A DNA stretch of 64,000 nucleotides. Source: an uncultured Thermoleophilia bacterium. Lineage in GTDB: Bacteria > Actinomycetota > Thermoleophilia > Gaiellales > F1-60-MAGs149. The position numbers and the translations under genes were made by a program. A model generated the notes under the pieces. The model was not told where the DNA came from. It searched no databases and was given only the letters and a program-made list of their open reading frames with translations. Below are positions 4,538 to 22,962 of the stretch, piece by piece (within the stretch, counting starts at the first letter, position 1; each line of letters begins with the position of its first letter). The stretch covers positions 19,990-83,989 of the forward strand of contig CAWDBC010000013.1 in assembly GCA_963800515.1 (NCBI GenBank), in the 5' to 3' direction.

Positions 4538-4658
4538 GCGGGGATCATAACGCCTCAGATCGTTCTAGACCATTAGACGCCGCGGAGGTCGCTCCTCCCG
4601 CCGAAAGCGGCGCGACGGCCGCCGCTACGCTGCCCGCCGTGAACGGGCCCGGGACGTC

Positions 4659-5537
4659 GTGCTGCGCCTCGGGCTGATCGGGCTCGGCTGGATCGGCCGC
4701 ACCCATGCGGCCACTATCGGCGAGCTGGCCGGGGCCGAGCTCGTCGCCACGGCGGACCCGGTCGCGGACGGCGCCACCCACCGCGACTGGCGCGCGCTCC
4801 TCGGAGAGGAGCTCGACGCCGTCCTCGTCTGCACGCCTCCCGACCTGCATCGCGAGCCGACGCTGGCCGCCCTCGACCGGGGGCTCCCCGTCTACCTCGA
4901 GAAGCCGATCGCCCACGACCGCGCGGACGCCCGGGCGATCGTCGCGGCGGCGGAGGCGCCGGGGGCTCGCTGCGTCGTCGGCTACCAGTACCGCGCGCTC
5001 TCCTTCCTCGACGACCTGCCCCGAGATGCGACCGTCGTCCTCGGCGTGGGGCTGTCCGAGACGATGGATCGTCCGTGGCTCGGCGACCGGAGCCGCGGCG
5101 GCAGCTTCATCCTCGAGCGGGCGAGTCACCTGATCGACCTCATCCGCGTCGTCGCCGGCTCGGTCGAGCGGATCGTCGCCGTCGAGCGCGAGGCGACGCT
5201 GGCGCTGACCCTGGAGCTCGCCTCCGGCGCCCTGGCGTCGATCGTCGTCGGCCGCTCCGGCCGGGGACCCGGCTGGCGGCTCGAGCTCGTCGGCCCGGCG
5301 GGCGCCACGGTCGTGCGGCTGGACGACCCCGCCTCCGCCTCCGGTCCGGCCCTCCGGGTCGACGACGAGGACGGGCCGCTCCTCGGACGTGCCCTCGGCC
5401 TCTTCTGCCGGGCGGTCGGAAGCGGCGATCGGCCGGCCCCCCTCTGCTCGTCGGCGGACGCGCTGGAGACGCTCGAGGTGGCGCTCGCCGCCGAGCGCTC
5501 GCGTCTCTCCGGGCGGATGGAGGCGGTCGGGCGGTAG
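4659..5537 (+). CDS. Gfo/Idh/MocA-family oxidoreductase
   Basis: LGLIGLGWIG, VCTPPDLH, VYLEKP, GGSFILERASHLID. Confidence 0.85.
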   Translation: MLRLGLIGLGWIGRTHAATIGELAGAELVATADPVADGATHRDWRALLGEELDAVLVCTPPDLHREPTLAALDRGLPVYLEKPIAHDRADARAIVAAAEAPGARCVVGYQYRALSFLDDLPRDATVVLGVGLSETMDRPWLGDRSRGGSFILERASHLIDLIRVVAGSVERIVAVEREATLALTLELASGALASIVVGRSGRGPGWRLELVGPAGATVVRLDDPASASGPALRVDDEDGPLLGRALGLFCRAVGSGDRPAPLCSSADALETLEVALAAERSRLSGRMEAVGR

Positions 5538-5647
5538 GGTCGTCTCGACGTGCTCGCGGACGCCCCGGGCGGCTCGCGTTCCCGGTGCGGCAGGCGAGAG
5601 GCGACGAACGCGTCCGGCCCGGCGGCGAGCAGCCGGCTGCCCGGCGC

Positions 5648-8368
5648 CTACCGCCCGAGCCGGGTCCGCTTGGTCCGGGTGAAGACGTTGCCGGAGCGGT
5701 TCTTGAAGGACGCCTTCTTCGTCACGACGATCGGCGGGTGCGCGTGCCGCAGCAGCCGGCGTCCGGTCGTCGTCAACCGGATCCGGATCAGGACCTTGCC
5801 GCGGCGCTTCAGCGCCTTGGCGCCCCGGGCGACGCCGACCCTGCGCGCGGGGTGGCCTCGGCGCGCGGGCCTGGTCTGGACCGTCCAGGTGATCGCGATC
5901 CGGCCGGCGCTCGGCGCCTTGAAGAGGGTCGAGCAGCCGCCCCGCTCGAGGAGCAGGCGGACCGTGAACCGCGGACAGGAACCGGCGAGCGCCTTCTTCA
6001 ACGCCGCCCTGGCGACCGCGATCGTCTGCGCCGAGGCGGGGGAGGGCCGCGTCGTGGGCGGCGGTATGGGCTCCGATCCGATCACCCCGGCGAACGGGGC
6101 CTCGCTGGTGTCGCCGAAGGTCGAGGTCTGGGCCGCCCAGACGCGCTGGCCGGGGGCGAGCGCGAGGTGCGGGATGGTCCAGATCCCGGTGGTGGGGACG
6201 GCGGTGGTGCCGATCGGGTCGATCGAGCCGCTCGTCGGGTTCTGGGCGTAGACCTCGACGGTCGCGCCGTAGGCGGAGCTCGTGCCGCTGATCGCCGTCG
6301 TGGAGAGCAGGGTGACCGGCGGCGCGTTCTGCTTGCGGTTGGCGCCCGTGTCGGCATCGCCGGGATCGTTCGGCAGGGGCGTGCCGAGCTGGTTGTCGCC
6401 GTTGTCGAGGTCGATCAGGAGGTTGCCGATCCCGGCGTAGTGGTTGCCCTGGATCGTGTTCGAGTAGGCGCCGAGGGATTCGACGGTGACGCCGACGGCG
6501 GCGCCGGCGATCGCGTTGCCGGTGACCGCGTCGAACTGGGCCGAGCGGCGGAGGACGATGCCGAAGTCGTAGGTGCGGGGGACCAGACCGGCGCTGTCGG
6601 TGCCGATGGCGTTGCCGCGGAACGTCTCCTGGGTGGAGGCGATGCCGGTCGAGAAGCCGGCCCGCTGGGGCATGCAGCGGTTGCCCTCGACGAGGTTCGA
6701 CGGCGAGTGGTCGTAGACGTTGACGCAGTCGGCCTTGTAGAGGTCGTCGGCCACGGACGTGGTCGCCCGGTTGTCGTCCACGCCGGCCGACAGGTAGGCG
6801 CCGCCGGCGTAGCGGCCGTACGCGTCGAGGCCGAAGGTGTTGCCCTGGATCGCGTTCGCCTCGTTGTTCCAACGATCCTCGCCGCCGGGCGGGGCGCCCG
6901 CGCCCGTGTAGCCGTGGGAGAGTTCGACGGCGGTGCAGCCGGTGGCGGCGAAGTGGTTGCCCTGGCCGGCCGCCAGGCCCCCGATCTGGTTCGAGTGCGC
7001 GCCGGCGTTCCAGTCCGTCCCCGCGCACTGGAGCGGACCCGGGGCGCCGTTCGGCCCGATCCCGATCAGGTTCCCCTGGATCGTGTTCCTCGTCGTATAG
7101 CCCTCGCTGTGGGTGGCGCGGCTGAAGTTGCCGAAGACGTTGCGGTCTCCGGGCGCCGGCGAGCCGATGAGGTTGCCGCTCGTGCTGTCGAGGACGATCG
7201 CGTAGTCGCCGCTCGCCGCCGCCGCTCCGGCCGTCGTGAACCCGAACCAGTTGCCGACGATCCGGTTGTTGTTGCCTCCGGCCTCGACGTCGATCGCCGC
7301 ACCCCGGGTCGTGAACGCGAGCCCGGTGAAGACGTTGGCACCGCCCGAGAGGACGAACCGGGCGTGGCCGCCGGCCGAGTCGATGGTGATCAGGTTCCTT
7401 GCGTTCGAGAGCACCGGGTCGGTGTTCGGCGCCGAGCCGGGCTCGCTGTAGCCGTCGATCGTCGTCCCGCCGGTCGAGTCGGTGAGCGCCAGCGAGCCGC
7501 CGTTGGTCAGCTGGAAGACCGCCGTCGCGCCCGACGGCGCGACGTTGAACCGGATCACGTCCGATCCGTGGTGCGCGTTCGCCTCGGTCACCGCCGCCCG
7601 CAGGGAGCAGGAGCCCGTCGACGTGCGACAGGACCCGTCTCCGGGATGCGCGTCCGGCAGGTCGGCCGTCGTGCTGACCGTCCAGGTCGCCGTCGCCGAC
7701 AGGCGGCGGGAGACGGCGGGCGCGGCCGCCGCGGTGGCCGCCCGTGCGGCGAGCGCCTGGACCTCGCCCATCCCGACCTGCCCGCGGGCGAAGAACGCCG
7801 CCGCGATGCCCGCCCGGCCGTGCGACCACGATGGCGCGCCCGCCGCCGCCAGCAACGGATCGGCCGTGCCTCTGCCCACGGCCAGGCTCGGCGCCCGACC
7901 GGCCAGCAGCGTCCGGTTCGCGCCGACCCGCACGGTCAGCGTCGTCGGCCGCGCCCGCGCCACGACCCGCCCCTCCGGGTCGTACAGCGTCGCTCGCGCG
8001 ATCCGGAACCGGAACACGCCGCTTCGGGCCGGCTCGACGCTGATCACCCCGAGCGGACCCGACCGCGGAGCGACGCCCGAGGCGCCGTAGAAGCCGACCC
8101 GGCCGTCCTCCCCGCCGACCGGAAAGCCGCCGCGGACGAGCGGCAGCGCTGCGGAGATCGACGTGGCTCCCTGCGCGTAGCCGAGGCTCGCCGCGAAGGC
8201 CCCCACCCGCAGTCCGGCTGGTGCCCGCACCTCGATCGCGAAGGACTCACCCGCCGCGGCCCGCCCAGGGGCCGTGAGCTCCAGACGCGCCGACGCCGCC
8301 ACCGCGCCCGGGGCTGGCAGCGCAGCCACACCGGCGGCAGCCAGCCCGCCCAAGCACCGAACACGCAT
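5648..8368 (-). CDS. Secreted CSLREA-domain / right-handed beta-helix protein with N-terminal cohesin-like module and basic C-terminal domain
   Basis: GGAGAGG RBS and signal peptide MRVRCLGGLAAAGVAALPAPGAVAA. TVSTTAD...GDGSC...CSLRAAVTEAN motif; many N-x-I-x-G-N-x-(F/I)-G beta-helix turns; Pro/Thr linker; K/R-rich tail. Confidence 0.82.
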   Translation of the reverse strand: MRVRCLGGLAAAGVAALPAPGAVAASARLELTAPGRAAAGESFAIEVRAPAGLRVGAFAASLGYAQGATSISAALPLVRGGFPVGGEDGRVGFYGASGVAPRSGPLGVISVEPARSGVFRFRIARATLYDPEGRVVARARPTTLTVRVGANRTLLAGRAPSLAVGRGTADPLLAAAGAPSWSHGRAGIAAAFFARGQVGMGEVQALAARAATAAAAPAVSRRLSATATWTVSTTADLPDAHPGDGSCRTSTGSCSLRAAVTEANAHHGSDVIRFNVAPSGATAVFQLTNGGSLALTDSTGGTTIDGYSEPGSAPNTDPVLSNARNLITIDSAGGHARFVLSGGANVFTGLAFTTRGAAIDVEAGGNNNRIVGNWFGFTTAGAAAASGDYAIVLDSTSGNLIGSPAPGDRNVFGNFSRATHSEGYTTRNTIQGNLIGIGPNGAPGPLQCAGTDWNAGAHSNQIGGLAAGQGNHFAATGCTAVELSHGYTGAGAPPGGEDRWNNEANAIQGNTFGLDAYGRYAGGAYLSAGVDDNRATTSVADDLYKADCVNVYDHSPSNLVEGNRCMPQRAGFSTGIASTQETFRGNAIGTDSAGLVPRTYDFGIVLRRSAQFDAVTGNAIAGAAVGVTVESLGAYSNTIQGNHYAGIGNLLIDLDNGDNQLGTPLPNDPGDADTGANRKQNAPPVTLLSTTAISGTSSAYGATVEVYAQNPTSGSIDPIGTTAVPTTGIWTIPHLALAPGQRVWAAQTSTFGDTSEAPFAGVIGSEPIPPPTTRPSPASAQTIAVARAALKKALAGSCPRFTVRLLLERGGCSTLFKAPSAGRIAITWTVQTRPARRGHPARRVGVARGAKALKRRGKVLIRIRLTTTGRRLLRHAHPPIVVTKKASFKNRSGNVFTRTKRTRLGR

Positions 8369-8499
8369 CGCGTCGCCCTCTCCCGCCGTTGGTAGCCGCG
8401 CACGCAATAGTGAACCCCATACGGGGGAAAAGTGCAATCACGCCACGGCCAAACGGGGGAGGCGAGGGCCGAGCGTGCGCGCTCGCGCTCGACGACGCC

Positions 8500-9645
8500 T
8501 CAGGCGGCGGCGACCGCCTCCGGATCCGAGACCACGACCTCCGCGTCGGGATCCACCCGGAGCACCCGCAGCGCCTCCGGCGCCAGGTGCAGCGAGACCG
8601 GTGTGCCCTCGGTCAGGCCGGTGCCGCCGTCGTTCTGGGCGACCGCCTTCACCAGCTCGCCACCGACCAGGCGCACCCGGACCTCCTCGAAGCTGCCGAG
8701 GAAGACGGCGTGCTCGACCATGCCCGGGAAGGCGGTTCGTCGCCGGCCGCGCCGTGCGGCTCGACCCGGACCCGCTCGGGGCGGATCATCAGCCGCACCT
8801 CGCCCGTGCAGTCGGTCTGGCCGCTCGTGGCCCGGAGCGTTCGCTCGCCGACGCGCACGACGCACCCCTCGCCCTCGCGCCCGGCGACGGTGCCGGCGAT
8901 CAGGTTGGAGACGCCGAGGAAGTCGGCGACGAAGAGCGTCTCCGGCTCCTCGTACATCGTCGGGCGGCGGTCCGGCCTGCTCGACCCGGCCGCGCGCTCA
9001 TCACCGCGATCCGGTCGGACATCGTCAGCGCCTCCTCCTGGTCGTGCGTGACGAAGACGAACGTGATCCCGAGCTCGCTTCTGGAGCGCCTTCAGCTCGA
9101 CCTGCAGGTCCTTGCGCAGCCGGGCGTCGAGGGCGCCGAGCGGCTCGTCGAGGAGGAGGACCCGGGGCCGCAGGACGAGCGCGCGGGCGAGAGCCACGCG
9201 CTGCTGCTGGCCGCCGGAGAGCTGCCCGGCTTGCGCTTGCCGAAGCCGGCGAGGCGCACGAGCCCGAGGGCCTCGCGCGACCTGCTTCGCGCGCTCCGCC
9301 TTGCGTCAGCTTCTTGTACTTGAGGCCGAAGGCGACGTTGTCGGCCACCGCAGGTGCGGGAAGAGCGCGTAGCTCTGGAACACGGTGTTGACGTTGCGCC
9401 GGTGCGGCGGGGTCTGGGCGACGTCGGTGCCGTCGAGCAGGATCCGGCCGCTGCGTCGGCCGCTCGAAGCCGGCGATCATGCGCAGGGTCGTCGTCTTGC
9501 CGCAGCCCGAGGGGCCGAGCAGCGTGAAGAACTCGCCCGGCGGCATGTGGAGGTCGATCCCGTCGACGGCGGCGACCTCGTCGAAGCGCTTGACGAGGGA
9601 CTCGAGCTGGACCTCTCCGAGCGTCGGTGTCTCGTCCTGGCTCAC
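8500..9645 (-). CDS. potA: Polyamine-type ABC transporter ATP-binding protein (frameshifted in this assembly)
   Basis: Fragments in different frames: GPSGCGKTT Walker [46 protein letters not shown]-like tail. Confidence 0.85.
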
Positions 9646-10511
9646 GTCACACTCCCAGATCTGCGATGGCGTCGGTGGTGCTCGAGCCGGCGAAGCGCCG
9701 GTAGACCAGGTAGGTCAGCGTGAGGGTCGCCATCGTGATCACGAGCGCGATCGTCGCGAGCGCGTTCAGGGCGGGCGTCGGGGCGGCCCGGGCCGACGAG
9801 TAGAGGAGCATCGAGCACGGTCTGCGTCCCGGCGCCGCCCGACAGGTACTGGGTGACGACGAAGTCGTCGATCGAGAGCGCGAAGACGATCGCCGCGCTC
9901 GCGAGGATCGCCGGCATCAGGAGCGGCAACAGGATCCGGACGACCCGGTCGCGGGGCGGCGCTCCGAGGTCGGCCGCCGCCTGCTCGTACTCGGGGCCGA
10001 TCGAGACGAGCCGGCCGCGGACGATGACGACGACGTAGGACAGCGAGAACGTGACCTGGCCGATCGCCTGCGACGTCGTTCCGAGGCCCGATCGTCGGCA
10101 GGATCTGGAGGAAGAAGAGCAGGAGCGACGACCCCCATCACGATCTCGGGCGTGACCAGCGGCAGGAGCATCATCACGTTGACCGGGCCGCTGCCCCGCC
10201 CGCGCCAGCGCTGCAGGCCGAGGGCGAGCGTCGACCCCGAGCGGCACGCGAGAGCGACGACGCAGATCAGCCCGAGGAACAGCGTGTGCGGAGCGCGTTC
10301 TGGTAGTCGGGGTTGTGCAGACGCTGAGGTTCGGATCGCCCGTAGAACCAGCGGAGCGAGAAGCCCTGCCAGTCGCTGAGCGAGCGCCCGTAGTTGAACG
10401 AGAAGAGCGATCGCGATCAGGACCGGGCAGGACCGTCCAGATGAGGTAGAGGCCGATGATCACCGGCAGGAAGCGCGGCCGGCCCCAGGGATTCCGCAGC
10501 CAGGCGGTCAT
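9642..10511 (-). CDS. potC: PotC-like ABC permease (frameshifted)
   Basis: LLPLVTPEIVMG, EAA loop YEQAAADLGA, FALSIDDFVVTQYL. Confidence 0.82.
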   Translation of the reverse strand: MTAWLRNPWGRPRFLPVIIGLYLIWTVLPGPDRDRSSRSTTGARSATGRASRSAGSTGDPNLSVCTTPTTRTRSAHAVPRADLRRRSRVPLGVDARPRPAALARAGQRPGQRDDAPAAGHARDRDGGRRSCSSSSRSCRRSGLGTTSQAIGQVTFSLSYVVVIVRGRLVSIGPEYEQAAADLGAPPRDRVVRILLPLLMPAILASAAIVFALSIDDFVVTQYLSGGAGTQTVLDAPLLVGPGRPDARPERARDDRARDHDGDPHADLPGLPALRRLEHHRRHRRSGSVT

Positions 10512-11430
10512 CGTGCGCCGTCACCTCGTCGCCGGCGCGCCGCGTCTGTCCGCAGGTAGTAGAGCATCAGGAAGAGCAGGAGCACGGAGAGGATGATCGT
10601 GAGCATCGCGCCGACCGTCTTCTGCGGAGCCCTGGCGGACGAACAGGTCGATCTGGTTGCCGAACATGTTGGTCCGGGGCGAGGCCGAGATCAGGTCGGC
10701 GGTGTAGTAGTCGCCGAACATCGGCAGCGCGATCAGGACCGTCCCCGAGAGGAGGCCCGGGACGGACATCGGGAGCGTGACCCGCAGGAACGCCGAGAGC
10801 GGGTTGCCGCCGAGGTCCCGGGCCGCCTCGATCTGCCGCTGGTCGATCCGGTCGAGCGCCGCGTAGAGCGGCAGGAGGAGGAACGGGATGTAGCCGTAGA
10901 CGAGGGCCAGCGACGACCGAGGAGGGCTGCCCGTCGAGCCAGCCGCCGCCGGGCGACAGCAGGTGCAGCTGGCGGAAGAGCCACTCGATCCCGGTGTCGT
11001 GGAGGAACGTCGCGCCCCAGCCGCCCGGCGAGAGGAGGTTGATCCAGGCCAGCATCCGCATCAGGTAGTTGATCCAGAACGGCAGCACGAGGCCGACGAG
11101 GAGGGCACCGCGCCAGCGGCCGCTGTGGCGCGCCGTGTAGTAGGCGACGGGATAGCCGACGAGGATCGAGAGGACGATCGCGATCGCCACATAGAGGATG
11201 GTCCGCAGGAGGACCTTGAGGAACGCGCCGTTGTGCCAGAAGTTGCGGAGCGTCTCGATCGCGTAGCCGACGTTCCAGTCGAGGGGGTTCCAGAACGGGA
11301 TCGGCTGGGCGACCGTGTTCTGGTTGCCGAGCGCCACGCAGACGACGGCGTACATCGCGACGAGGAAGAAGAGCGAGAGCCAGGCGACCCCCGGGATCGC
11401 CAGGAGCCGCCAGGTCCACCGGGACTCCAC
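10508..11430 (-). CDS. potB: PotB-like ABC permease (frameshifted)
   Basis: VGYPVAY, LPFWINYLMRMLAW, PMFGDY; 3' end approximate. Confidence 0.82.
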
Positions 11431-11433
11431 CCC

Positions 11434-12790
11434 TCAGCCCGCCTTGAACGCCGACCAGGCGTCCTGCCAGAGCTTGTCGCCGCTCGCCGTGAGCGCCAGG
11501 AGCTCCTGGTTGTTCGAGAACTGCTCCGGCGAGAGGACCGCCGTGGAGAGCGACTTCGGGATCAGCCCCTGCTTGACGAGGGTGGCGCCGTCGATGGTGT
11601 TCTGCGGCGGCGTGTAGCCGACGAAGTCGGTGAAGTTGGCGTACGCGTTCTTCTCGTCGAGCATGAAGTTGATGAACGCGTGGGCGAGCGCGGGGCGGGG
11701 CGACGACTTCGTGATCATGAACATGTCGTTCTGGAAGACGCCGTTCTTCTCGGGGCCCCAGAACGACATCACCGACGGCTTGACGCCCTTCGGCATGTAG
11801 TAGAGGGCGGCGCCGACCGCGTCGCCCGACCAGCAGTGGTGGAGCCAGGACTTGGCCTGAGGAACGGTCTGGTACTCGGTGATGTCGACCTTCACGTCGC
11901 AGATCCCGACGAGCTGGGTCAGGTCCTTGCCCGCCTTCGCCACGAGCTTCGGGTCCTCGGTGTTCAGGTCGGGGCGCACGCCCGTGCGCATGGCGTCGCG
12001 CTGCATGGGCATCGACAGGCGAGTCGCGGTCGTCGTCGAGGATGCCGACCTTGCCGCGCCAGGGCTTGCGACTCCCAGAAGATGTCCCAGGGCACCTTCA
12101 TCCCGGCGATGTCCTCGCGGATCTTGTCGTTCCGCCAGAGGATGCCGTCGAGCCAGACGACGTACGGGATCGTGTAGCGCGACCCCAGGTCGTACCAGGG
12201 ATCCTGGAGGACCGGCCAGACGTTCTTCAGGTTCGTCAGGTAGGAGTGGTTGAGCGGCGGCAGCAGGCGCTGCGAGATGAAGCCGGCAGCACGCTCGCCG
12301 CAGAGCCCGATGACGACGTCGAACGCCACCTGGCCCGAGGACGAGCTTGGCGAGCGCCTCGTCGCTCGAGTTGTAGGTCGCGACCTGCACCTTGCAGCCG
12401 TACTGCTTCTCGAACTTCTTGACGAGGCCGGGGAAGATGTAGTCGGCGTAGTTGTAGACCCGGAGCGTCCCGCCCTCGGGCTTGACGGCCGTCGGGGATC
12501 GGCTGGTTGTCGTCGAGGATCGCCCAGGTGACGCTGTTGTCGGGCCGCGGGAGCGGCAGCGCCGCCGGGCCGAGCGGCTTGGCCACCACGAACGAGGCGG
12601 CCTGGGCGCTCTCGCCACCGCCGTTGTCGCAGGCGCCGACGGGCGTCGTCGTGTATCGGCGCAGCCGGCTGAGCGCGCCCAGCGCGCCGCGCGCCGAGCG
12701 CGACGCCCCGCCGCGCCCTGGAGGAGCCTGCGCCGCGGAACTCCGATCCCGAGGGCGTCCGTGGGCCGATTCCGCACGTCGATGGCTCAT
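11434..12790 (-). CDS. potD: PotD/PotF-like substrate-binding lipoprotein with Tat-type signal (frameshifted)
   Basis: RRRLLQGA twin-Arg motif, LRVYNYADYI, DPWYDLGSRYTIPY, CWSGD, AHAFINFML. Confidence 0.8.
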
Positions 12791-12791
12791 G

Positions 12792-14949
12792 TCAAGGTGC
12801 GCGCGCGCCCGGCCATCGGCCTCCGGCCGGTGGACGACCGACGCGGAACCAGTCGCGCCCGGACCCTCGTCGAGGACGACGCAGGCGTCGAGGCGCGCCC
12901 GCCGCGGCGACGCGCGCAGCGGGTTGACCTCGATCTCGGCGAGCTCGGGCAGGCCGCACAGCGATGTCGCCGAGCGCCACGGCGACCCGCGCCACCGCAT
13001 CGACGTCGACCGCGGGGGCGCCCCGCGCTCCGGCGAGCAGCGGCGCCGCGCGCAGCCCGCGCAGCAGGCCGGGCGACGTGCTCCGGGGTCGGCCGGCGCG
13101 AGCGCGACCGCGACGTCGTCGAGCACCTCGGCGAGGACCCGCCCGCGCCGACGAGGATGACCGGGCCGAGCAGCGGGTCGCGGCTGGGCGCCGACGATCA
13201 GGTCGAGACCCGGCGCGGCCATCCGCTCGACGAAGACCCCGTCGCGCCGCCTCGCCGCCCGCGGCCGGTCAGGCGCGCGGCCGCGGCCTCGGCGTCGTCG
13301 GCGGGCGCGACGCCGAGCACCACGCCGCCCGGCATCGGTCTTGTGCAGCAGCGTCGGGGCTGACGAGCTTGAGCACGAGCCGCCCGCCGAGCGCCCGCGC
13401 GGCCGGCGGCTCGGCCTCGGCCGGGCTCGCGGCCAGGCCGCCCTCGGCGAGGGCGATGCCGCAGGCGGCGACGAGCGCCCGGCGCCTCGACGTAGCCCGG
13501 CCGCGGCCGAGACCACGGCGGGCGGCGCCGCGGCGGCGCGGGCGGCGACGGGGCGCCACGCGCGCGCGGCAGGCGCGCGAGGGCCGCGACGGCCGCGTCC
13601 AGCCGCGGGTAGACGGGCACGCCGGCGGCGCGCAGGGCCGGGATGCCCGGCACGGGGCGGTGCAGGTGCATCGTGTGCACGAGCAGCGGCTTGCCGGCGG
13701 CCGCAGCGGCGCGCGCCAGGCGCTGGCCGGCCGTCGGCCTCCTCAGGGCCCGAGGGCGTGGGTCGTTGTCCCCGTAGCCGCCGAAGTAGCCGGTCAGCAG
13801 CAGCGACTCGATCGGCGGGGTCGGCCAGCAGCCCCTCGCCGATGCGGGCGAAGGAGTGCACGTCGCGCTCGCCGGCGCCGGCCAGGTCGAGCGGGTTGCC
13901 GCGCGATGCCGGTCGGGATCTCGCGCGCACGAGGCTGGCGACCGTCGCCGCGCGATGGGGCGCGGCAGCTCCAGCCCGGCGTCGATCAGCAGGTCGGCCG
14001 CGATCGCCGGTTGCCGCCGCCGTCGGACATGACGGCCACCCGCCGGCCGCCGACCGCCGCGGGCGTGCACGAGCGCCGCGGCCGCGTCGGCCAGCTCGCC
14101 CATCGAGCGCACGAGCCGCGCGCCGGCGTCGCGCAGCGCGGCCTCGAGCACGCGCCAGGGCGCGGCCAGCGCGCCCGTGTGCGAGGCCGCGGCGCCGCGC
14201 CGGCCTGCCGAGCGGCCGGCGGCGAGCACGAGCACCGGCTTGCGCGCGGCACCGGCGCACCGCGTCGATCAGCCGCGGCCCTCGCGCAGTGTCCTCGACG
14301 TAGCAGCCGGCGACGAGGTCGCGCTCGTGCTCCGCGGTCGATGGCCAGCACGTCGGCGACGCTCACGTCGCTCGCGTTGCCCAGCGAGGCGAGCCGGCTG
14401 AAGCCGAGCCCGTGCTTCTGCAGCAGGCCGCCGAGCTCGATGGCCAGGTTGCCGCTCTGGGCCACGAAGGCCACCGGCCCGGGCGCGAGCGTCATGCCGA
14501 TGCGCGTTCAGGCTTCGCGGCCGCCTCGTAGACGCCCATGCAGTTCGGCCCGACCAGCAGCCCGCCCGCCGGCTGCACGCGCTCGGACGAGCCGCCGCTG
14601 CGCCTCGCGCCCCCGCTCGCCGGTCTCGGCGAAGCCGGCCGCGACGGCCACGAAGGCGCGCGACGCCGGCCGCGAGACCCTCCTCGACGGCGCCTTCGGT
14701 CGCGCGCGCCGGGATCGCGAGCACCGCGAGGTCGCAGCCGGGCGGCACGTCGCGCAGGCTCGCGTGCACGGGACGGCCGTCGATCTCGCCGCCGCGCCGG
14801 TTGACGAGGTGCAGGTCGAAGCGCGCCTCGGGCTGCGACAGCGTCTGCACGAGCCAGGTGCCCCAGGCCATCGGGTCCGCGCTCGCGCCGACGACGGCGA
14901 CGCCGCGTGGCTCGAACAGGGCTCGCAGGTCGCGGTCGCCGGCCGTCAC
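12792..14949 (-). CDS. Acetate--CoA ligase family (ADP-forming acyl-CoA synthetase, fused alpha/beta; heavily frameshifted)
   Basis: LFEPRGVAVVGAS, VAFVAQSGN, ASLGNASDV, AASHTGALA (phospho-His), GNPLDLAG, VLKL...HKTD, EIEVNPL. Confidence 0.85.
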
Positions 14950-16155
14950 GCGGGCAGAACGCTAGCGGGCGCGGGAGCCAGCATCGCCTCCACCCCCCGC
15001 CGCTCGAGCCCGCGCGCGACGATCAGGCGCTGGATCTCGCTCGTCCCCTCCCAGATGCGGTCGACGCGCAGCTCGCGCAGGAAGCGCTCCGCCACGTTGG
15101 TGCGCACGTAGCCGCGGCCGCCGAAGACCTGCACGCAGCGATCGGCGCAGCGGTAGGCGGCCTCCGACGCGAAGCAGCTTGGCGGCCGAGGCGCGGGCGT
15201 GCACGAGCTTCGGGTCGGCGCCCTCGTCGGCGAGCTGGGCGACGTCGTAGGTGAGCAGGCGCGCCGGCGGCGCAGTCGGCGGCGGAGTCGGCGAGCGGGA
15301 AGCTCACGCCCTGGTGGTCGAGGATGCGCTCGCCCGAACTGCCGCGTTCGATCGCCCAGGCGGTCGTCTCCGCGATCAGCCGCCGCATCGCGCCCGACGC
15401 AGCGGGCGGCGATGTGGATGCGCTCCTCGACGAACCACGCGTTCTGCTGCTCGCTGCCGCGGCCGATCATCTCCGGGCCGCCGACCACCGCGTCGGCGCC
15501 GGCGTCGGACGTCGAAGCGGATGGTCGGGATGACCGTGGGGATAGCTGTGCGTGAACGGCGGGTCGTCGACGAACTCGATGCCCTCGCTGCCGGCGTCGA
15601 CGAAGAAGAGCGTCGGGCGGCGCTCGCCGTCGGCGCCGACGACGTCGACCATGACGACGAAGACGTGCGCGACGTCGCCCGAGGTGACGAACCACTTCTC
15701 CGTCCGGATCCGGTAGCCGTCGCCCTCGGGGACGGCCGTCCCCTCGATCGCCGAGGGATCCGAGCCGGCCTCGGCCTCGGTCACGGCGTAGGCGTCGTTG
15801 AGCGTGCCGGCGAGCGCGGCATCAGGTACCGCTCGATCTGCTCGGGCGTGCCCATCGAGAGGACGTTGTAGCCGCTCTCGGAGTGCCACCAGATGCCGTT
15901 GGTGTTGCGGCCGAGCTCCTCCTGGACGAGCGCCTGCTCGAGCACGCACCAGCCCTGGCCCCCGTGCTCCGCCGGGTGGTGGCCGCCGGTCAGGCCGAGG
16001 CGCCGCGCCGCCGCGGCGACCTCGGCCGCGACGCCCTCCGGCAGGCGGCCGTGGGCCCGCTCGGCCCGCTCCTCGAGGGGGATAGCCGTCTCGTCGACGA
16101 ATCGGGCCGCGCGGCGCCGCAGGTCCTCCTGCGCGGCTGTCAGCGAGAGAGCCAT
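14946..16155 (-). CDS. Acyl-CoA dehydrogenase (frameshifted)
   Basis: AYAVTEAEAGSD, EKWFVTSG, HQGVSFPLADS, VQVFGGRGY, RVDRIWEGTSEIQRLIVAR. Confidence 0.9.
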
Positions 16156-16500
16156 GCGTCCTCCCGGCCGGCGAGCACGGCGAGGCGCCCGCCCTCCGAC
16201 CGATCCGGCTCCCGCAACCCGGGCACGCCGGGCGCGAGCAGGTGCTGCTCGAGGAGCACCTGGGCGAGCCGGCGGCAGAGCGCCTCGTCCGCTCCCGCCC
16301 GGACGGCTGCCTCCAGGCGACGCCGGCAGTCGCGGAGGAACGCGAACCAGCGCTCGGGGTCGTCCTGGCCGATCAGCTCGTCGATCCGTTCGCGCTCCGC
16401 GCCGCCGGCCGGCGCCAGGAGCTCCATCAGCCCCGGGACCTCGCGCTCGACCTCGGGTGTGAGGAAGAGCCAGGCGGCCCGCTCGTCCGAACGGTGCCAG
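16140..16500 (-). CDS. Hypothetical helical protein (~95-120 aa; start uncertain)
   Basis: Frame with normal codon usage (AAWLFLTPEVEREVPGLMELL...ERWFAFLRDC...LLEQHLLA) fills the gap between the Rieske stop and the acyl-CoA dehydrogenase start. First in-frame ATG is at 16427. Confidence 0.55.
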
Positions 16501-16504
16501 CGCC

Positions 16505-17627
16505 TCAGCCGGGGTCGATGCCGGGCACCGCGGCCCGCAGCTGCTCGTGGAAGTGGCGGACGCCGGCCTCGTTGACGTTGAGGACGCCCCGGTCGTAGGT
16601 GAGCGACTCGAGCCCCCGCTGGACGCCGTCGCAGAGCTCGACGTCCTCGTCCATCACGAGCGTGTTGATCGTCGTCGAGAGGCGGCGGACGAGGCGGTTG
16701 CGGAGCGACTCGCCGGCCGGCCGGTAGACGACGGAGACTGCGCGGGTGCGGCGAAGGCCGACCGGCTCGAGCGCCCAGGTGTCGATCGAGTCCGGATAGA
16801 TGTCGAGGAACGTGGACGGCCACAGGTGGACGTAGGTCCACGCCCCGGCGAGCTCCGGCGGAAAGCCCGGCATCGGCGTCCGCAGGCGCTGGTAGACGCG
16901 CTCGCGGCGGTCGCGGGAGCGCTTCTCGCGAAAGGGCCCGTCGATCCACGTGTAGCGGGTGCCGGGCGTCGGCCTCGTAGCGCTTGTAGTCGAGGAGGCG
17001 GAGGAGCCCGGGGTGGCCGACCGGGATGTGGTAGCCCTCGAGGTAGTTGTCGGCGATGACCTTCCAGTTGTGATCGTACGTCGCCACCTGCGGCTCGGCG
17101 GGTACGAGCGCGGGAAGCGGGAGGCGGGCGAGTCGCTCCCCGAGGTCGCCGAAGTACGTCTCCAGCGGCTCCGTCTCCTCGTCGAGGCAGACGAAGACGA
17201 GCCCGGCGAGCTCGCCGACGCGGAAGCGCGGCAGGCGGACCGCGTCGCGGTCCAGGTCGTCGAAGCCACGGGCCTCGGGGACGGCGGCGAGCTGGCCGTC
17301 CTGGCGGTAGGTCCAGCCGTGGTACGGACAGCGCAGCACCTTGGGGCAGCTGCCGGCTCCGGCCAGGATCGTCGAGGCCCGGTGCCGGCAGACGTTGGAG
17401 AGCGCCCGCAGGACGCCGTCCGAGGCGCCGCGGAGGACCGCGACCGGCTCGCCGGCGATGCTCGTCGTCGCGAAGCTGCCGGGAGCCTCGACCTGCGAGG
17501 CGTGGCAGGCGAGCTGCCAGGCGCGCGCGAAGACCTCGCGCCGCTCGCGCTCGAGGATCCCGGGGTCCGTGTAGGCGCTGGCCGGGAGTGTCGTCGCCGG
17601 CCGGAGCCGCGTCGGGCTGGCGGTCAT
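16505..17627 (-). CDS. Rieske non-heme iron oxygenase alpha subunit, CntA/choline-monooxygenase-like (one frameshift near 16965)
   Basis: TLPASAYTD, NVCRHRA...CPYHGW Rieske motif, NWKVIADNYLEGYHIPVGH iron site with bridging Glu, EDVELCDGVQRG. Confidence 0.9.
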
Positions 17628-18223
17628 CCGATCACCCGATCCGCGCGCCGGCCGGCGCCGAGCACGGTGACGACCGAGTCGTGGAGGAGCGCCGCGGCCC
17701 GCCCGTGGTCCATCCCGCCGAGCACCACCTGCTGCGCGAGCCCGTCGAGCGTGGCGGCGAGGATGCGGGCGACGTCCTCGGTGTCCGCCGTCGAGACGAT
17801 CGAGCCGTCGGCCTTGCCGGCGTCGATCTCGGCCGCCAGGAGCTGCAGCCACAGCTCGTAGGAGGCGAGGGCCGGTTCGCGCAGGAAGGGGTTGAACATC
17901 GCCGCGCGCCAGACCTCGATCGAGATGACCCAGGTCTCGTGGAAGGCCGGCGAGTCCTCGAGGTAGACCGCGAGCAGCGCCTCCAGCCGCTCGGCGCCGG
18001 TGGCGAGGCCCTCCATGGCGCGGGCGGCGAGCACGTCCGCGGTCGCGTCCGTCCGCTCGAAGGTCCGGGCGAGGAGGTCGTCCCTGGTCGCCACGTAGTA
18101 GTGGACCAGGGCCGTCGAGACGCCGGCCTCACGGGCCACGTCGGACATCCTGAGCGCGTCCACCCCCTCGCGGGCGATCACGCGCGCCGCGGCGTCGAGC
18201 AGATCATCGATGCGACTCGTCAT
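17624..18223 (-). CDS. TetR-family transcriptional regulator (BetI-like C-terminus)
   Basis: LLDAAARVIAREG...MSDVAREAGVSTALVHYY HTH; LAATLDGL; ATGA-coupled to the Rieske gene. Confidence 0.92.
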   Translation of the reverse strand: MTSRIDDLLDAAARVIAREGVDALRMSDVAREAGVSTALVHYYVATRDDLLARTFERTDATADVLAARAMEGLATGAERLEALLAVYLEDSPAFHETWVISIEVWRAAMFNPFLREPALASYELWLQLLAAEIDAGKADGSIVSTADTEDVARILAATLDGLAQQVVLGGMDHGRAAALLHDSVVTVLGAGRRADRVIG

Positions 18224-18235
18224 CTCTCCCTCACC

Positions 18236-18259
18236 GTTTGACTGACTCGTCAGTCAAAC
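18236..18259. promoter_or_regulatory. Perfect 11-bp inverted repeat, probable TetR operator over divergent promoters
   Basis: GTTTGACTGAC-TC-GTCAGTCAAAC in the 50-bp gap between tetR and the amine oxidase; contains a TTGACT -35-like hexamer. Confidence 0.8.
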
Positions 18260-18273
18260 CTCATACTAGCGCA

Positions 18274-19581
18274 GTGCAGCACGCCGACGTCGTCGTCCTC
18301 GGAGCGGGTCTCGCCGGCCTCGCGTGCGCCCGGGACCTCGTCGCGGCCGGCGCCGACGTCGTCCTTCTCGAGGCGCGGGAGGCGGTCGGCGGGCGCACGC
18401 CCCGGGTGGAGGTCGGGGGCAGGTCCGTCGACGGCGGGGGCGAGCTCGTCGGGCTCTTCATGGCGCCCATCGTGGAGCTCGCCGGCGAGCTCGGCCTGGA
18501 GCTCGAGGAATCGCAGACGGCGCTCCCCGGCGACACCGTCTACCTGGTGGACGGCCGCCGTGTGGCCGGTCAGGCCGACGACCTGATCGGCGCGAGCGGC
18601 CGCCGCTCCTACGAGGCCTACGAGCGACGGCTCGCGGAGCTGGCCGCCGGCTTCGACCCGGTGCGGCCGTGGGCGCACCCCGACGCGTCCGAGCTCGATG
18701 CGCTTTCGGTGGTCGATCACGCCCGTCGCCTCGGCGCCGACGACGCGGCGGTCGGGATGATCCGCCTGCACCACCTGTCGCTCTCGATCGACGCCCCCGA
18801 GCGGACGAGTGCGCTCGCGGAGGTCCGCAAGTACGCGGCCGGCGGCCGCTACGACTACGCCGCCTGGGAGTCGCACCGCGTCGCCGGCGGGACCTTCCAG
18901 CTCGCCGAGCGGATGGCGGACGGGCTCCACGACCGGATCCGCCTCGGCGCGCCCGTCACCCGGATCGCGCGCGTCCCGGGCGGCGTCCGGGTGCAGCTCG
19001 GAAGCGGCGCCCAGGTCGAAGCCGACGCCTGCGTCTCGACGATCCCCGGCGGAGTGCTGCACGGGGTCGTCCTCGAGGGGCTGTCCGAGCCGCGCCTCCG
19101 GGCGCTCCGCCGCCTCCGGCAGGCGCGGGCGGCGAAGGTCGTGGCGGTCTACGAGTCGTCCTTCTGGCGGCGGGCCGGCCTGACCGGGCTGTCCTACTCG
19201 GACGGCGTCGTCGGCTCGACCTGGGAGCAGCGTCCCGGGGTCCTCTCGGCGCTGGTGCCGCCGGAGCGGCTCGGCTACTTCGGGGCGATGAGCGACGAGC
19301 GCCGGCGCGCCGAGGCGCTCGACCACTTCGAGGCGCTCTTCGGGGACGAGGCGCGGACGCCGCTCGGGATGTGGATCCGGCTCTGGGGGGAGGAGCCGTA
19401 CACCCGTGGCTACGTGACGCAGCACGGCCTCGGGGACCTGACGGCGATGGGCGACCTCCTCGCCGCCTCCGAGGGGCCGTTCCACGTCGCGGGGTCGGAC
19501 TTCGCCCGGGTGGCCGGGTACATGACGGGAGCCGTGGAGACGGGCCGCGCGGCGGCCTCGAGGGTGCTCGCCGGGAGCTGA
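18274..19581 (+). CDS. Flavin monoamine oxidase family protein
   Basis: DVVVLGAGLAGL, EAREAVGGR, DGGGE, WGEEPYTRG, HVAGSD...GYMTGAVETGRAAA. Confidence 0.9.
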   Translation: MQHADVVVLGAGLAGLACARDLVAAGADVVLLEAREAVGGRTPRVEVGGRSVDGGGELVGLFMAPIVELAGELGLELEESQTALPGDTVYLVDGRRVAGQADDLIGASGRRSYEAYERRLAELAAGFDPVRPWAHPDASELDALSVVDHARRLGADDAAVGMIRLHHLSLSIDAPERTSALAEVRKYAAGGRYDYAAWESHRVAGGTFQLAERMADGLHDRIRLGAPVTRIARVPGGVRVQLGSGAQVEADACVSTIPGGVLHGVVLEGLSEPRLRALRRLRQARAAKVVAVYESSFWRRAGLTGLSYSDGVVGSTWEQRPGVLSALVPPERLGYFGAMSDERRRAEALDHFEALFGDEARTPLGMWIRLWGEEPYTRGYVTQHGLGDLTAMGDLLAASEGPFHVAGSDFARVAGYMTGAVETGRAAASRVLAGS

Positions 19582-19686: not shown

Positions 19687-19770
19687 ATGACCATCCTCTG
19701 GATCGTGATCATCGTCCTCATCGTCCTCTTCATCCTCGGCTACTTCGGCCGCGGCCGCATGGGGCGGTAG
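19687..19770 (+). CDS. 27-aa single-pass membrane microprotein
   Basis: MTILWIVIIVLIVLFILGYFGRGRMGR*. Every sense codon ends in G/C; GGGGGA lies upstream. Below the ORF-track size cutoff. Confidence 0.75.
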   Translation: MTILWIVIIVLIVLFILGYFGRGRMGR

Positions 19771-19845
19771 GCACGCCGCACCCGACCCGCGAGCCCCGGG
19801 GTCACGGTCGGGAAGGCTCGTTCGCCCCGGGTCGGGAAGAGGGCC

Positions 19846-20030
19846 GGTGGACCCGGGTGTGCCTTCGGTCCGGCGCGGAGACCAGACCCACGCGCGGTAG
19901 GCGACGAAGCGTCGGAGGTGCGGGAGGGTGTCGTCTGGATCGGACCCCGCGCGCCCAGGGCGTCATCGGCCCCGCCGAGGGCTGAGGTACGACGCCGGGG
20001 TGACGGGGACCGGCACCGCACAGGGTCGCC
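19846..20030 (+). ncRNA. Candidate structured RNA (three-way junction) in a convergent intergenic region
   Basis: Nested complementary segments read by eye: GACCC/GGGTC, GTGCC/GGCAC, GGTCC/GGACC enclosing hairpins 19873-19952 and 19959-19996. No family recognised. Confidence 0.3.
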
Positions 20031-20088
20031 GTCTCCCCCGGGTCGGCGCGCGTCGGGGACGACGAGGCGGGCCGGCGGGGCGGCCGGT

Positions 20089-21463
20089 CTACGTGGCCGG
20101 CAGGGTGATCCGGACGAGTGCGCCGCCGCCGGGCGCGTTCTCGGCCGCCACGACGCCGCCGGCCGCCTCGACGGCCTGGCGGACGATCGCGAGGCCCAGG
20201 CCGGAGCCGGGCTTGGCGCGGGCGGAGGCGGCCCAGGTAGAAGCGCTCGAAGACGTGGGGGAGGTCCGTCTCCAGGAATCCGGACCCGTGGTCGCGCACC
20301 GTGAGGGTGCGGTCGCGAAGCCGGACCTCGACGCGGCCGCCCGGCGGCGACCAGGTGACGGCGTTGGCGAGGACGTTCGAGATCGCCCGCGCGATCCGCT
20401 CGGCGTCGACCGTGGCGACCGTCTCCTCCAGCTCGACGGCGAACGCGGGCGCGTCGGGGCGGCGCTCGAACCGGTCGACGAGGGCCCGGACGACGAGATC
20501 GACGCGCGTCTCGTCGATCTCCGCGGCCGGACGCGAGCCGCGGGCGAGCTCCACGACGTCGGCGACGAGGGCGGTCAGCTCGTCGAGCTCGGCGATGATG
20601 TCGGCGCGCAGCGCGTCGCGGTCCTCCGGCGGCAGGCGATCCGCCTGATCGAGGATCTGGACGTTCGCCCGCAGGCTCGCCAGCGGCGTCCGGAGCTCGT
20701 GGCTCGCGTCGGCGACGAGCTGGCGCTGGGACTCGACCGACCGCTCGAGGGCGCTCAGCGAGGCGTTGAAGCTGGCGGCGAGCCGCGCGAGCTCGTCGTC
20801 GCCGCTGACCTCCAGCCGGTGCGACAGGTCCGGATCCTCGACGATGGTCTCGGTCCGCGCCGTGAACCGCCGGATCGGCGCGAGCGCCGTCCGCGCGGCG
20901 AGGCCCCCGAGGAGGGCCGCCAGGAGGATCCCGCCGGCGCCCATCAGGGCCAGGGAGATCGAGAGCCGGTGCAGCGAGGAGTCGACCTCCGTCAGCGGAC
21001 GGGCGACCTGGACCGCCCCCCGGACCCCGGATCCGACGGTCAGGATCCGCAGGTGGACGCGCCGCGTGACGCCGCTCTGGACGACGTTGCCGTAGGCGTC
21101 CCGGAAGGACCGACCGGCGCCACTCGCGGCGATCGACCGGGTGCGCGCGTCGACCGGAAGGGGCTGCTCTCCGGGCGGCCTGGAGACGACCCCGGTCTTG
21201 GAGATGGTCTGGAACGACCCGGAGGCGCCCCCGAAGGGCAGGCCGGGCGGGGAGTCGCCGGGTGCTCGGCCGTCGCCGTCGGGGATGCCGTCGTTCCGGC
21301 GGTTGGACGTGTCCTGGTAGACGCGGGCGCGCTCGTTCAGCGCGCTGTCGACCTGACCGCGCAGCTCCGACCGCGTGGAGGCGTAGACGGCGATCGCCAG
21401 GATCACCGTGACGACGGCGACCGCGAGGCTCGCGGCGGCGGCGAAGCGGGCCCGGAGGGTCAT
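20089..21463 (-). CDS. mprB: HAMP-domain sensor histidine kinase, MprB-like (frameshift near 20235)
   Basis: Two TM segments, DELARLAASFN HAMP, VADASHELRTPL H-box, NVLANA, VRDHGSG. G2 box GSGLGLAIV continues in the shifted frame to TAG at 20089. Confidence 0.88.
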
Positions 21464-22134
21464 GGCTCGCGGAGGACGTACCCCACGCCGCGGACGGTGT
21501 GGAGGAGCTGGCGGGCGCCGGCCTCCGTCAGCTTGCGGCGGAGGTAGCCGATGTACACCCGCAGCCCGTTCGAGGCGGGGCCGAAGTCGTAGCCCCAGAC
21601 CCGGTCGTAGATGAGGCTCGGCGGCAGCACCCGGCGCGGGTTCATCATGAAGAGCTCGAGCAGCTGGTACTCCGTGCGCGTCAGTTCGACGAACTGCTCG
21701 TCGACGAAGACGCCGTGACGGGCGGCGTCGAGCGTCAGCTCCTCGAACCGCGCGGTCCCCGGATCGCCGTCGCCGGACGTGCGGCGGAGGAGGGCGCGGA
21801 GGCGGGCCTGCAGCTCCCCCACGTCGAACGGCTTGACGAGGTAGTCGTCGGCCCCGGCGTCGAGGCCGCCGATCCGCGCGTCGACCGCGTCGCGCGCTGT
21901 CAGGATCAGGATCGGCAGTCGGTTGCCCTCCCGGCGCAGGGTCCGGCAGACCTCGAGTCCGTCGAGGTTGGGCATCCCGATGTCGAGCACGAGCGCGTCC
22001 GGAACGTCGGTGGTCACGCGGGCGAGGGCGTCGTAGCCGTCCTCGGCGGTGTAGACCTCGTAGCCACCGAGCATCAGGGCGCGGCGGAGCGCGTCGCGCA
22101 CGGCCCGGTCGTCGTCGGCGACGAGGATTCTCAT
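21460..22134 (-). CDS. mprA: OmpR-family response regulator, MprA-like
   Basis: MRILVADDD, LDIGMP, GADDYLVKPF, VWGYDFG...VYIGYLRRKL, HTVRGVGYVLREP. Confidence 0.92.
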   Translation of the reverse strand: MRILVADDDRAVRDALRRALMLGGYEVYTAEDGYDALARVTTDVPDALVLDIGMPNLDGLEVCRTLRREGNRLPILILTARDAVDARIGGLDAGADDYLVKPFDVGELQARLRALLRRTSGDGDPGTARFEELTLDAARHGVFVDEQFVELTRTEYQLLELFMMNPRRVLPPSLIYDRVWGYDFGPASNGLRVYIGYLRRKLTEAGARQLLHTVRGVGYVLREP

Positions 22135-22389: not shown

Positions 22390-22443
22390 GGGCGCGGCCG
22401 GGCGCAGGAGGGGAGGCGGCTCGACGACCGACCGCATGCTAAA

Positions 22444-22465
22444 CTGACGTTGACGTGAACGTCAG
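22444..22465. promoter_or_regulatory. MerR-type dyad operator
   Basis: CTGACGTT-GACGTG-AACGTCAG, overlapping a TAAACT -10 and the merR start codon. Confidence 0.7.
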
Positions 22466-22962
22466 AATCTCTCCTCCGCCCCTCGCCGAGCCCTCGGCCG
22501 ACGCCGGCCAGCAGTTCCGGATCGGCGAGTTCGCCCGACGGGCGGGCGCGACGCCCCGCCTCGTCCGGTACTACGAGGAGCTCGGCCTGCTCCCGGACGG
22601 CGGTCGCGCCGACGGCGAGCACCGCCTCTACGACGACGCGGCGGTCGAGCGCCTGCGCGAGCTCCTGCACGTGCGAGAGCTCCTCGGCCTGTCCCTCACG
22701 GAGCTCCGGGACTGGACCGAGGCCGAGCGCGCGCGGCGGGCGATCCGCGAGCGCTGGCGGTCCGGCGGCAGCGACTCCCCGGAGCGCGCGCGGCTGCTCG
22801 CCGACGCCACGGTCCACCTGGACCGGCAGCTCGCGCTCGTGCGGAGCCGCGCCGCGGCCCTCGAGCGCCTCGAGGCCGAGCTCGTGGAGCGTCGCGACGC
22901 GCGTCGCCGTCCTCGCCACCGCCACCGACGACACCGACCAGACGGATCCCGAAGCCCGATGA
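22455..22962 (+). CDS. MerR-family transcriptional regulator (slip near 22900)
   Basis: FRIGEFARRAGATPRLVRYYEELGLL...GEHRLY...LGLSLTEL. The shifted frame ends in ATGA overlapping the MFS start. Confidence 0.88.

Follow-up and report, generated by a model that had tools for sequence, protein, structure and literature searches.

Which compound might be consumed by a gene cluster that joins a Rieske oxygenase to a BetI-type repressor, a polyamine-type importer, two acyl-CoA enzymes and a divergent amine oxidase? The question is raised by positions 8500 to 19581 of a 64,000-nucleotide stretch, hereafter the window, of contig CAWDBC010000013.1 (positions 19,990 to 83,989, forward strand) from GCA_963800515.1, the assembly of an uncultured Thermoleophilia bacterium. 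On balance, we lean towards reading the cluster as a conserved TetR-repressed catabolic module of Thermoleophilia (here Gaiellales) whose substrate is an imported amine compound with a positive charge; an N-alkylated (methylated) amine or an omega-ammonio acid is the most likely candidate. That the substrate would be an amine is suggested by context, namely the CntA-type active site, the BetI-type repressor, the Pot-type importer, the putrescine-oxidase-like enzyme and the aminotransferase and decarboxylase found nearby in related genomes, while an N-methyl substrate is favoured on thinner evidence, because the characterised Rieske relatives act on quaternary amines and because the oxygenase of Streptomyces lutosisoli has one-carbon neighbours. 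The first-pass annotation of the window had not recognised this gene combination as a described pathway, and no description of it was found in the literature searched; what is new is a subfamily of CntA-like oxygenases, its undescribed gene context and an unannotated partner protein.

Thermoleophilia (Gaiellales, Solirubrobacterales) abound in soil, but most are uncultured and little is known of what they use as sources of carbon and nitrogen. A dedicated and regulated route for a charged amine would, if true, identify one of the compounds that they consume. Rieske enzymes that attack quaternary or methylated amines form a small set, relevant to the fluxes of trimethylamine and one-carbon units, and this set would gain a branch. 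The module is conserved and open to experiment, with one cultured carrier of its core.

The Rieske oxygenase and its relatives

As read from the window, the oxygenase carries CRHR...CPYHGW and DNYLEGYHIPVGHPG, including DNYLEGYH and YH...H. The Rieske cluster ligands (CxH...CxxH) and the 2-His-1-Asp ligands of the mononuclear iron are present here and across the clade defined below, in which C77, H79, C97, H100, D190, N191, E194, H197, H202 and D325 are invariant among 23 members and Y192 is conserved in at least 90%. The Tyr, Glu, two His and Asp of the clade align with CntA Y203, E205, H208, H213 and D323. The bridging-Glu DNYLE-x-YH iron site announced by the first-pass annotation is therefore there, with its Glu (the invariant E194) at the position of CntA E205, and the Tyr found in the window at the Y203 position is the aromatic mark of group Va. 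Aromatic dioxygenases have an aspartate as the bridging residue. In the available part of PMC7948474, group V Rieske oxygenases are defined by their quaternary-amine substrates; group Va has an aromatic residue at CntA Y203, which makes a pi-cation contact to the ammonium group, and E205 as bridging residue, while group Vb is without the aromatic residue at that position.

The intact orthologue from the related genome G001 matches CntA (6y8j) over its full length (1.2e-37), its best and sole full-length solved relative, whereas aromatic dioxygenases and Stc2 (3vca, 4e-26) align with it over the N-terminal half only; the orthologue at locus L023 is 32% identical to Escherichia coli YeaW. The supposed kinship with Rieske enzymes of methylated ammonium compounds rather than with aromatic dioxygenases is thereby upheld. 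We then placed the enzyme in a quick maximum-likelihood tree of 81 homologues, with E. coli YeaW as the group V reference and without rows L010, L024, L037, L038 and L040 (split or truncated matches). All cluster-linked Rieske proteins fell into one clade of 27 rows, with a support of 98 in the Shimodaira-Hasegawa-like approximate likelihood-ratio test (SH-aLRT); the remaining 53 homologues formed a separate branch and YeaW stood outside on a long one. Judging from these alignments, the oxygenase is CntA-like in architecture and active site, yet appears to be a family of its own, since its clade is separate from YeaW, the substrate pocket and Cys pair of CntA are not kept and the GbcA family cut-off is missed (residues and scores are given below). 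Elsewhere the assembly encodes two more Rieske paralogues (G000:C11:22172-23206 and C4:39689-40729), which have an identity of about 30% with the enzyme of the cluster.

Gene order, operator and conservation

The cluster is laid out as follows, the strand being given after the coordinates and a frame referring to a stop-to-stop open reading frame (ORF).

8500..9645, minus: PotA-like ABC ATPase with TOBE domain; at least two frame changes, the N-part and C-part of ABC_tran and TOBE_2 lying in three stop-to-stop ORFs (tblastn with the G001 orthologue: frames -2, -3, -2)
9647..10511 (ends approximate), minus: PotC-like permease; partial BPD_transp_1, tblastn frames -3 then -1, at least one frame change
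10521..11430 (ends approximate), minus: PotB-like permease; partial BPD_transp_1, tblastn frames -2 then -3, at least one frame change
11434..12777, minus: solute-binding protein of the PotD/PotF fold class; SBP_bac_8, open frame of 447 aa
12792..14949, minus: ADP-forming (NDP-forming) acyl-CoA ligase, fused alpha and beta; CoA_binding_2 and two Succ_CoA_lig pieces in three frames, at least four frame changes
14946..16155, minus: acyl-CoA dehydrogenase (ACAD), ATG at 16155; N, M and C domains in three ORFs, at least two frame changes
16140..16507, minus: small conserved helical protein of about 110-120 aa; start codon uncertain (CTG; GTG in L023)
16505..17627, minus: CntA-like Rieske non-haem iron oxygenase alpha subunit; Rieske and Ring_hydroxyl_A (Pfam), one frame change near 16944-16977
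17624..18223, minus: TetR repressor with BetI-type C-terminal domain; intact, TetR_N 42 bits and TetR_C_6 59.7 bits (Pfam)
18236..18259, no strand: perfect 24-bp palindrome between the divergent starts, candidate TetR operator
18274..19581, plus: FAD amine oxidase of the MAO/putrescine-oxidase family; intact, Amino_oxidase 165 bits

Pfam, tblastn and NCBIfam searches bear out the gene content and order first proposed, that is TetR, Rieske, an orphan ORF, ACAD, ligase and Pot importer, with a divergent oxidase. Neighbouring genes overlap or lie a few bases apart: the Rieske ATG and the TetR TGA share ATGA, the start of ACAD shares 16 nt with the small ORF, and the ACAD and ligase genes have 4 nt in common. 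The description of the cluster as a tightly coupled operon thus holds for spacing; it does not hold for ORF integrity, the genes being broken across frames as written. For the oxidase, the start listed with the ORFs (TTG at 18238) was replaced by the GTG at 18274, as read from the sequence. The palindrome GTTTGACTGACTCGTCAGTCAAAC takes up most of the 50-bp gap between the TetR ATG (18223) and this GTG, occurs once in the whole 2.43-Mb assembly and has its core, TGACTGAC..GTCAGTCA, kept just upstream of the TetR gene at five other loci (L006, L009, L020, L022 and L023); it agrees with the idea of one operator common to the repressor and the divergent oxidase. The cluster is flanked by two long open frames, 5648-8437 (minus; 929 aa stop to stop, with a clean, coding-like pattern of G+C at third codon positions, GC3) and 19740-21527 (minus; 595 aa), neither with a Pfam match at 1e-6.

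The module is patchily common to relatives of the window organism. With the Rieske profile we fetched 80 public loci, 27 of them in the clade or near it by identity and 53 others. Around the 27 we found the small protein in 24, ACAD in 23, the BetI-type TetR in 21, the ADP-forming ligase in 18, at least two Pot components in 10 (one weak, 30-31% identity) and the amine oxidase in 7, and since many of these loci lie on short contigs, the misses make these counts lower bounds. ACAD, TetR, ligase, amine oxidase and small protein were found at none of the 53 more distant loci. In genomes of the same family and order, the gene orders are the following.

G001: SBP-PotBCA-TetR-Rieske-ligase1-hydratase-ACAD-ligase2 (SBP, solute-binding protein)
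G004: TetR-Rieske-ligase1-hydratase-ACAD-ligase2
G011 and G018: TetR-Rieske-ligase1-ACAD-ligase2
G028: Pot genes-Rieske-TetR, divergent from small protein-oxidase-ligase
G003, locus L014 (G003:C3), 3693-12480: TetR-ligase1-hydratase-ACAD-ligase2 next to an Orn/Lys/Arg decarboxylase, without Rieske

The gene set is thus syntenic elsewhere. Of the results named in the first-pass annotation as refuting its reading, neither a grouping with aromatic dioxygenases nor an absence of synteny was obtained. The last locus, which has the CoA genes and TetR and no Rieske gene, indicates that the CoA branch can occur without the oxygenase. An Orn/Lys/Arg decarboxylase adjoins the module in G001, G003 and G008, a class-III aminotransferase is a neighbour in 6 loci, and further recurrent neighbours are methyltransferases, short-chain dehydrogenases/reductases, enoyl-CoA hydratase and flavoproteins of the old yellow enzyme (OYE)/FadH type. 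Beyond Thermoleophilia, the clade includes metagenome-assembled genomes (MAGs) labelled Mycobacterium, Nocardioidaceae and Dongiaceae, together with S. lutosisoli, a cultured carrier of the Rieske/small-protein/TetR core. At its locus (L034, 8282-17933), a NuoF-like FMN/4Fe-4S protein and the small protein are divergent from Rieske-TetR-(DAO-GCV_T)-PurU-ETF-FolD, of which DAO-GCV_T (dimethylglycine-oxidase-like), PurU, ETF (electron-transfer flavoprotein) and FolD make up a one-carbon disposal set.

The small protein, first listed as an orphan ORF, turns out to be a real conserved gene. The window copy is 54.5% identical to its L023 homologue, and the homologues in these clusters have in common an invariant W-L-x-L-T-P-E-x-E...P...W, with Y-L further on. 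Modelled with AlphaFold2, the L023 homologue (first row of alignment A3) has five helices at a predicted local distance difference test (pLDDT) of 84.8. Pfam gave nothing below E 0.08, Foldseek against the PDB no match at E <= 0.001 and generic helical bundles only, and the ESM Atlas no usable match; a profile search of 1.84 billion representative proteins returned only 154 clusters. It is, in short, a family without annotation. Its gene follows the Rieske gene in the window, L023 and G001, heads a divergent oxidase-ligase operon in G028, L027 and L029, and precedes the NuoF-like flavoprotein in L034 and L043. A predicted complex with the Rieske protein scored 0.02 against a mark of 0.32 and speaks neither way. 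Apparent fusions that join the small protein to a Ring_hydroxyl_A tail, an amine oxidase or an ACAD (P0083, P0078, P0113, P0108) were read as gene-calling run-throughs, which tell of adjacency only.

As for the other proteins, the G001 PotA orthologue reaches 381 bits with the NCBIfam polyamine ATPase TIGR01187 (cut-off 355.6), while the G001 permeases (150 and 165 bits) stay under the NCBIfam equivalog cut-offs and the G001 binding protein scores 78 and 70 bits against PotD/PotF cut-offs of 636 and 582. The window binding protein aligns in one frame with residues 106-448 of its G001 orthologue at 34% identity, its N-terminus being unaligned, and the best PDB matches of the close orthologue in L003, although weak (2.2e-17), are putrescine/spermidine-binding proteins. 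Intact ligase orthologues have the domain set of the ACD family (CoA_binding_2, Succ_CoA_lig and ATP-grasp_5 in one chain of about 700 aa), the ATP-grasp part of the window copy lying in frame -1 at 13240-12866; the best NCBIfam equivalog gave 320 bits against a cut-off of 1300, and none was reached. The window ACAD is 52-58% identical to the L023 orthologue over frames -2, -1 and -3. The solved relatives of the module ACAD are generic short-chain ACADs only and its best NCBIfam model, acryloyl-CoA reductase, was rejected at 176 bits against a cut-off of 640, so that no specificity is assigned. The TetR protein has a BetI-type fold and is not a BetI orthologue, because it passes Pfam TetR_C_6 (59.7 bits, cut-off 27) and misses NCBIfam BetI TIGR03384 (55.4 bits, cut-off 201.3). 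The amine oxidase has putrescine oxidase 3rha as its best PDB match (4.5e-46, full length, about 161 bits). Glu324 of the Rhodococcus putrescine oxidase is the acidic residue that defines the substrate through its distal amino group; the corresponding position in the window enzyme is a gap or Ser, varying with the PDB alignment used.

Substrate, proposed route and rival readings

In the route that we propose, the Pot-type ABC system would import the compound, and either the compound or a product of it would make the BetI-type TetR leave the palindrome that separates the two divergent promoters. A primary amino end would be oxidised to an aldehyde by the putrescine-oxidase-like flavoenzyme, and a dehydrogenase encoded elsewhere might take the aldehyde on to the acid; the ADP-forming ligase would turn the acid into a CoA thioester and the acyl-CoA dehydrogenase would desaturate it. 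The CntA-like Rieske enzyme might then hydroxylate the carbon next to the remaining charged nitrogen, leading to N-dealkylation or C-N cleavage, with the small helical protein as a possible dedicated accessory. All of these steps are inferred and their order is guesswork.

Several observations weigh against a methylated substrate or against the route as drawn. A Cys pair, C206/C209, stands beside the iron site of CntA and is found in some group V members, according to the available part of PMC10952381. In the window and the clade, G and I/V stand in place of this pair, and of the three residues that make up the hydrophobic pocket two are changed as well (Y315 to I, F319 to V); with these replacements the trimethylammonium pocket of CntA is not kept. 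The position of CntA N270 is Asp in the G001 alignment. Three clade members score 110.5, 121.1 and 135 bits with NCBIfam GbcA (NF058607), whose cut-off is 670. We found no reductase or ferredoxin gene in the Gaiellales clusters and no reductase gene of the CntB/YeaX type in the window cluster or the conserved neighbour sets, a NuoF-like flavoprotein occurring in L034 and L043 only. Both importer and oxidase look like proteins that handle putrescine or spermidine in unmethylated form, and for betaines the usual importers are OpuAC or BCCT systems. Aldehyde dehydrogenase and thiolase genes are missing from the cluster, and a hydratase gene from the window copy, which leaves the CoA branch incomplete as drawn. 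The module is also rare: in a sample of 301 genomes from the whole class, its small-protein marker turned up in 12.

The quaternary or N-methylated substrate of the first-pass annotation is therefore retained in part: the only independent support for an N-methyl substrate comes from the S. lutosisoli Rieske gene beside those for a dimethylglycine-oxidase-like protein, PurU, ETF and FolD, while the kinship of importer and oxidase with unmethylated-diamine proteins and the loss of the Cys pair and two pocket residues speak against it. The further suggestion that the route feeds the betaine/dimethylglycine genes at 51.5-58.4 kb stands as to gene content, since window 51232-58371 (plus) encodes an OpuA-type ATPase, a permease and an OpuAC binding protein (51.2-55.8 kb), then a DAO and GCV_T protein of the dimethylglycine/sarcosine-oxidase type (55.9-58.4 kb) in two overlapping frames, 55862-57412 and 57031-58371. 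As to linkage, about 32 kb of unrelated genes lie between, and no such linkage was found in relatives. Separately, a 577-aa FAD protein, CrtI/phytoene-desaturase-like (NAD_binding_8, weak Amino_oxidase), is encoded at 48347-50080 (plus), 29 kb from the cluster.

A serious rival to an N-alkylated substrate, though one that we consider unlikely, is a plain polyamine route. Here the module would degrade ordinary unmethylated polyamines (putrescine, cadaverine, spermidine, homospermidine), the Rieske enzyme would cleave a secondary-amine C-N bond or hydroxylate the chain, and the CoA enzymes would take omega-amino or dicarboxylic acids. The polyamine ATPase subfamily passed by the G001 PotA orthologue, the putrescine or spermidine bound by the best solved relatives of the binding protein, the putrescine oxidase that is the best solved relative of the oxidase, and the decarboxylase and class-III aminotransferase neighbours are all as this would have it, and the Tyr at the CntA Y203 position might contact a protonated amine too. 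These similarities are, however, distant (66 bits for the binding protein, 161 bits for the oxidase), the S. lutosisoli neighbours belong to one-carbon and methyl metabolism, and the characterised relatives of the Rieske group named in the available part of PMC7948474 all act on quaternary amines.

At the other end, the preferred reading of an imported N-alkylated amine has a bolder form, which we put forward tentatively and regard as doubtful. The Rieske enzyme and the helical protein of about 110 aa might constitute a new amine oxygenase system acting on CoA-activated omega-(methyl)ammonio acids, with the NuoF-like flavoprotein as reductase in some Actinomycetes. The module could then represent an undescribed aerobic C-N cleavage or demethylation route of soil Thermoleophilia for butyrobetaine- or valerobetaine-like betaines or N-methylated polyamines.

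Between 8500 and 17627 every gene except those of the binding protein and the small protein is split over at least two reading frames in the window. Intact orthologues located at least 11 frame changes by tblastn (PotA at least two, PotC at least one, PotB at least one, ligase at least four, ACAD at least two, Rieske one), the Pfam domains and tblastn segments of single proteins being spread over different stop-to-stop ORFs, and in the GC3 frame plot the phase switches every few hundred bases from 8.5 to 17.6 kb. In the Rieske gene the change is one extra base relative to L022/L023 inside a G+C run, the exact place of which is not fixed by the alignment; the G+C content of the window is 72-76%. 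TetR, the amine oxidase, the small ORF and that part of the binding protein which aligned showed no frame change. The share of 8500-17600 covered by clean long ORFs is 0.27; over 263 nine-kb genome bins the median is 0.66 and the 5th percentile 0.30.

A truly decayed pseudogene operon at 8500-17627, with no working pathway, would explain at least 11 frame changes within about 9 kb, a clean-ORF cover among the lowest 5% or so of genome bins and an intact TetR and oxidase on the flank. We nevertheless hold decay to be very improbable. The rpoB gene of the same assembly (G000:C1:86631-89849, outside the window), too essential to be a pseudogene, is spread over at least eight open frames (13 matches). 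The dimethylglycine-oxidase-like gene at 55.9-58.4 kb is split too, no large deletions were seen in the cluster and every domain is still recognisable. The assembly as a whole, of which contig 13 carries the window, reaches a completeness of 61.8% at 2.43 Mb in 14 contigs, and its clean long ORF cover has a mean of merely 0.65, 5% of 9-kb bins being as poor as 8.5-17.6 kb. The nearest public relatives are MAGs of Gaiellales and other Thermoleophilia, and several relatives with few contigs have a similarly low completeness. Given an essential gene equally fragmented, 61.8% completeness in only 14 contigs and a low ORF cover genome-wide, the frame breaks are most likely indel errors of a long-read assembly rather than gene decay; frequent errors of this kind would also account for such a completeness in so few contigs. 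The true genes of the window copy are thus probably intact, and the copy as assembled is a poor template. Functional reasoning was accordingly based on the intact orthologues and not on the reading frames of the window, which, coming from an error-rich long-read assembly, may look like an intact operon when translated by eye. At 22443-24338 (plus), a single open frame encodes a MerR DNA-binding domain followed by part of a major facilitator superfamily (MFS) transporter, probably two genes joined by an assembly indel.

A last reading is a CoA-dependent route for an acid without nitrogen (aromatic, alicyclic or dicarboxylic), in which the Rieske protein would be a ring or chain hydroxylase and the Pot importer and amine oxidase unrelated neighbours. 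It would suit the Ring_hydroxyl_A assignment of the catalytic domain in Pfam, the aromatic dioxygenases among the next NCBIfam matches, the generic short-chain ACAD and the ADP-forming ligases known for aryl-acetates and pimelate, but it is highly improbable, as the alignment with aromatic dioxygenases takes in no more than the Rieske domain and the beginning of the catalytic domain while that with CntA runs from end to end, a beta subunit is absent, and importer, amine oxidase, aminotransferase and BetI-type TetR are linked repeatedly across families.

Comparison with known systems

Among group Va enzymes, CntA and YeaW are like the module oxygenase in length (about 370 aa), in full-length similarity, in having no beta subunit, and in the Rieske and 2-His-1-Asp ligands and the bridging Glu, which has an aromatic residue two places ahead of it. 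They differ in that the module enzyme belongs to a separate clade, is without the Cys pair and has other pocket residues; moreover, E. coli YeaX adjoins YeaW, whereas the module has no adjacent CntB/YeaX reductase and instead has CoA enzymes and the small helical protein. From group Vb (GbcA/BmoA and Stc2), GbcA is the best NCBIfam model for the module Rieske protein, at 110-135 bits against the cut-off of 670 and with an alignment confined to the N-terminal half. With its genes for a dimethylglycine-oxidase-like protein, PurU and FolD, the S. lutosisoli locus resembles betaine demethylation loci. Unlike group Vb as described in the available part of PMC7948474, the module enzyme has an aromatic residue at the Y203 position.

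The CoA branch also has counterparts. An aerobic CoA-dependent gamma-butyrobetaine route operates in rhizobia. In the anaerobic gamma-butyrobetaine pathway of Emergencia timonensis, BbuABC, the available part of the source (bioRxiv 10.1101/2021.01.25.428109) describes a CoA thioester of an omega-ammonio acid, then an enzyme of the acyl-CoA dehydrogenase family. The module would have in common with it, by description and not by sequence, the CoA activation of an omega-ammonio acid and an ACAD-family step; as far as that part of the source goes, Bbu has CoA transferases, a BCCT transporter and no oxygenase, whereas the module has an ADP-forming ligase, a Pot importer and a Rieske oxygenase. The importer has the same four-component architecture and fold families as PotABCD and PotFGHI, although the G001 binding protein is far under the PotD/PotF cut-offs, and the module oxidase aligns over its full length with the actinobacterial putrescine oxidase (PuO), though at about 161 bits.

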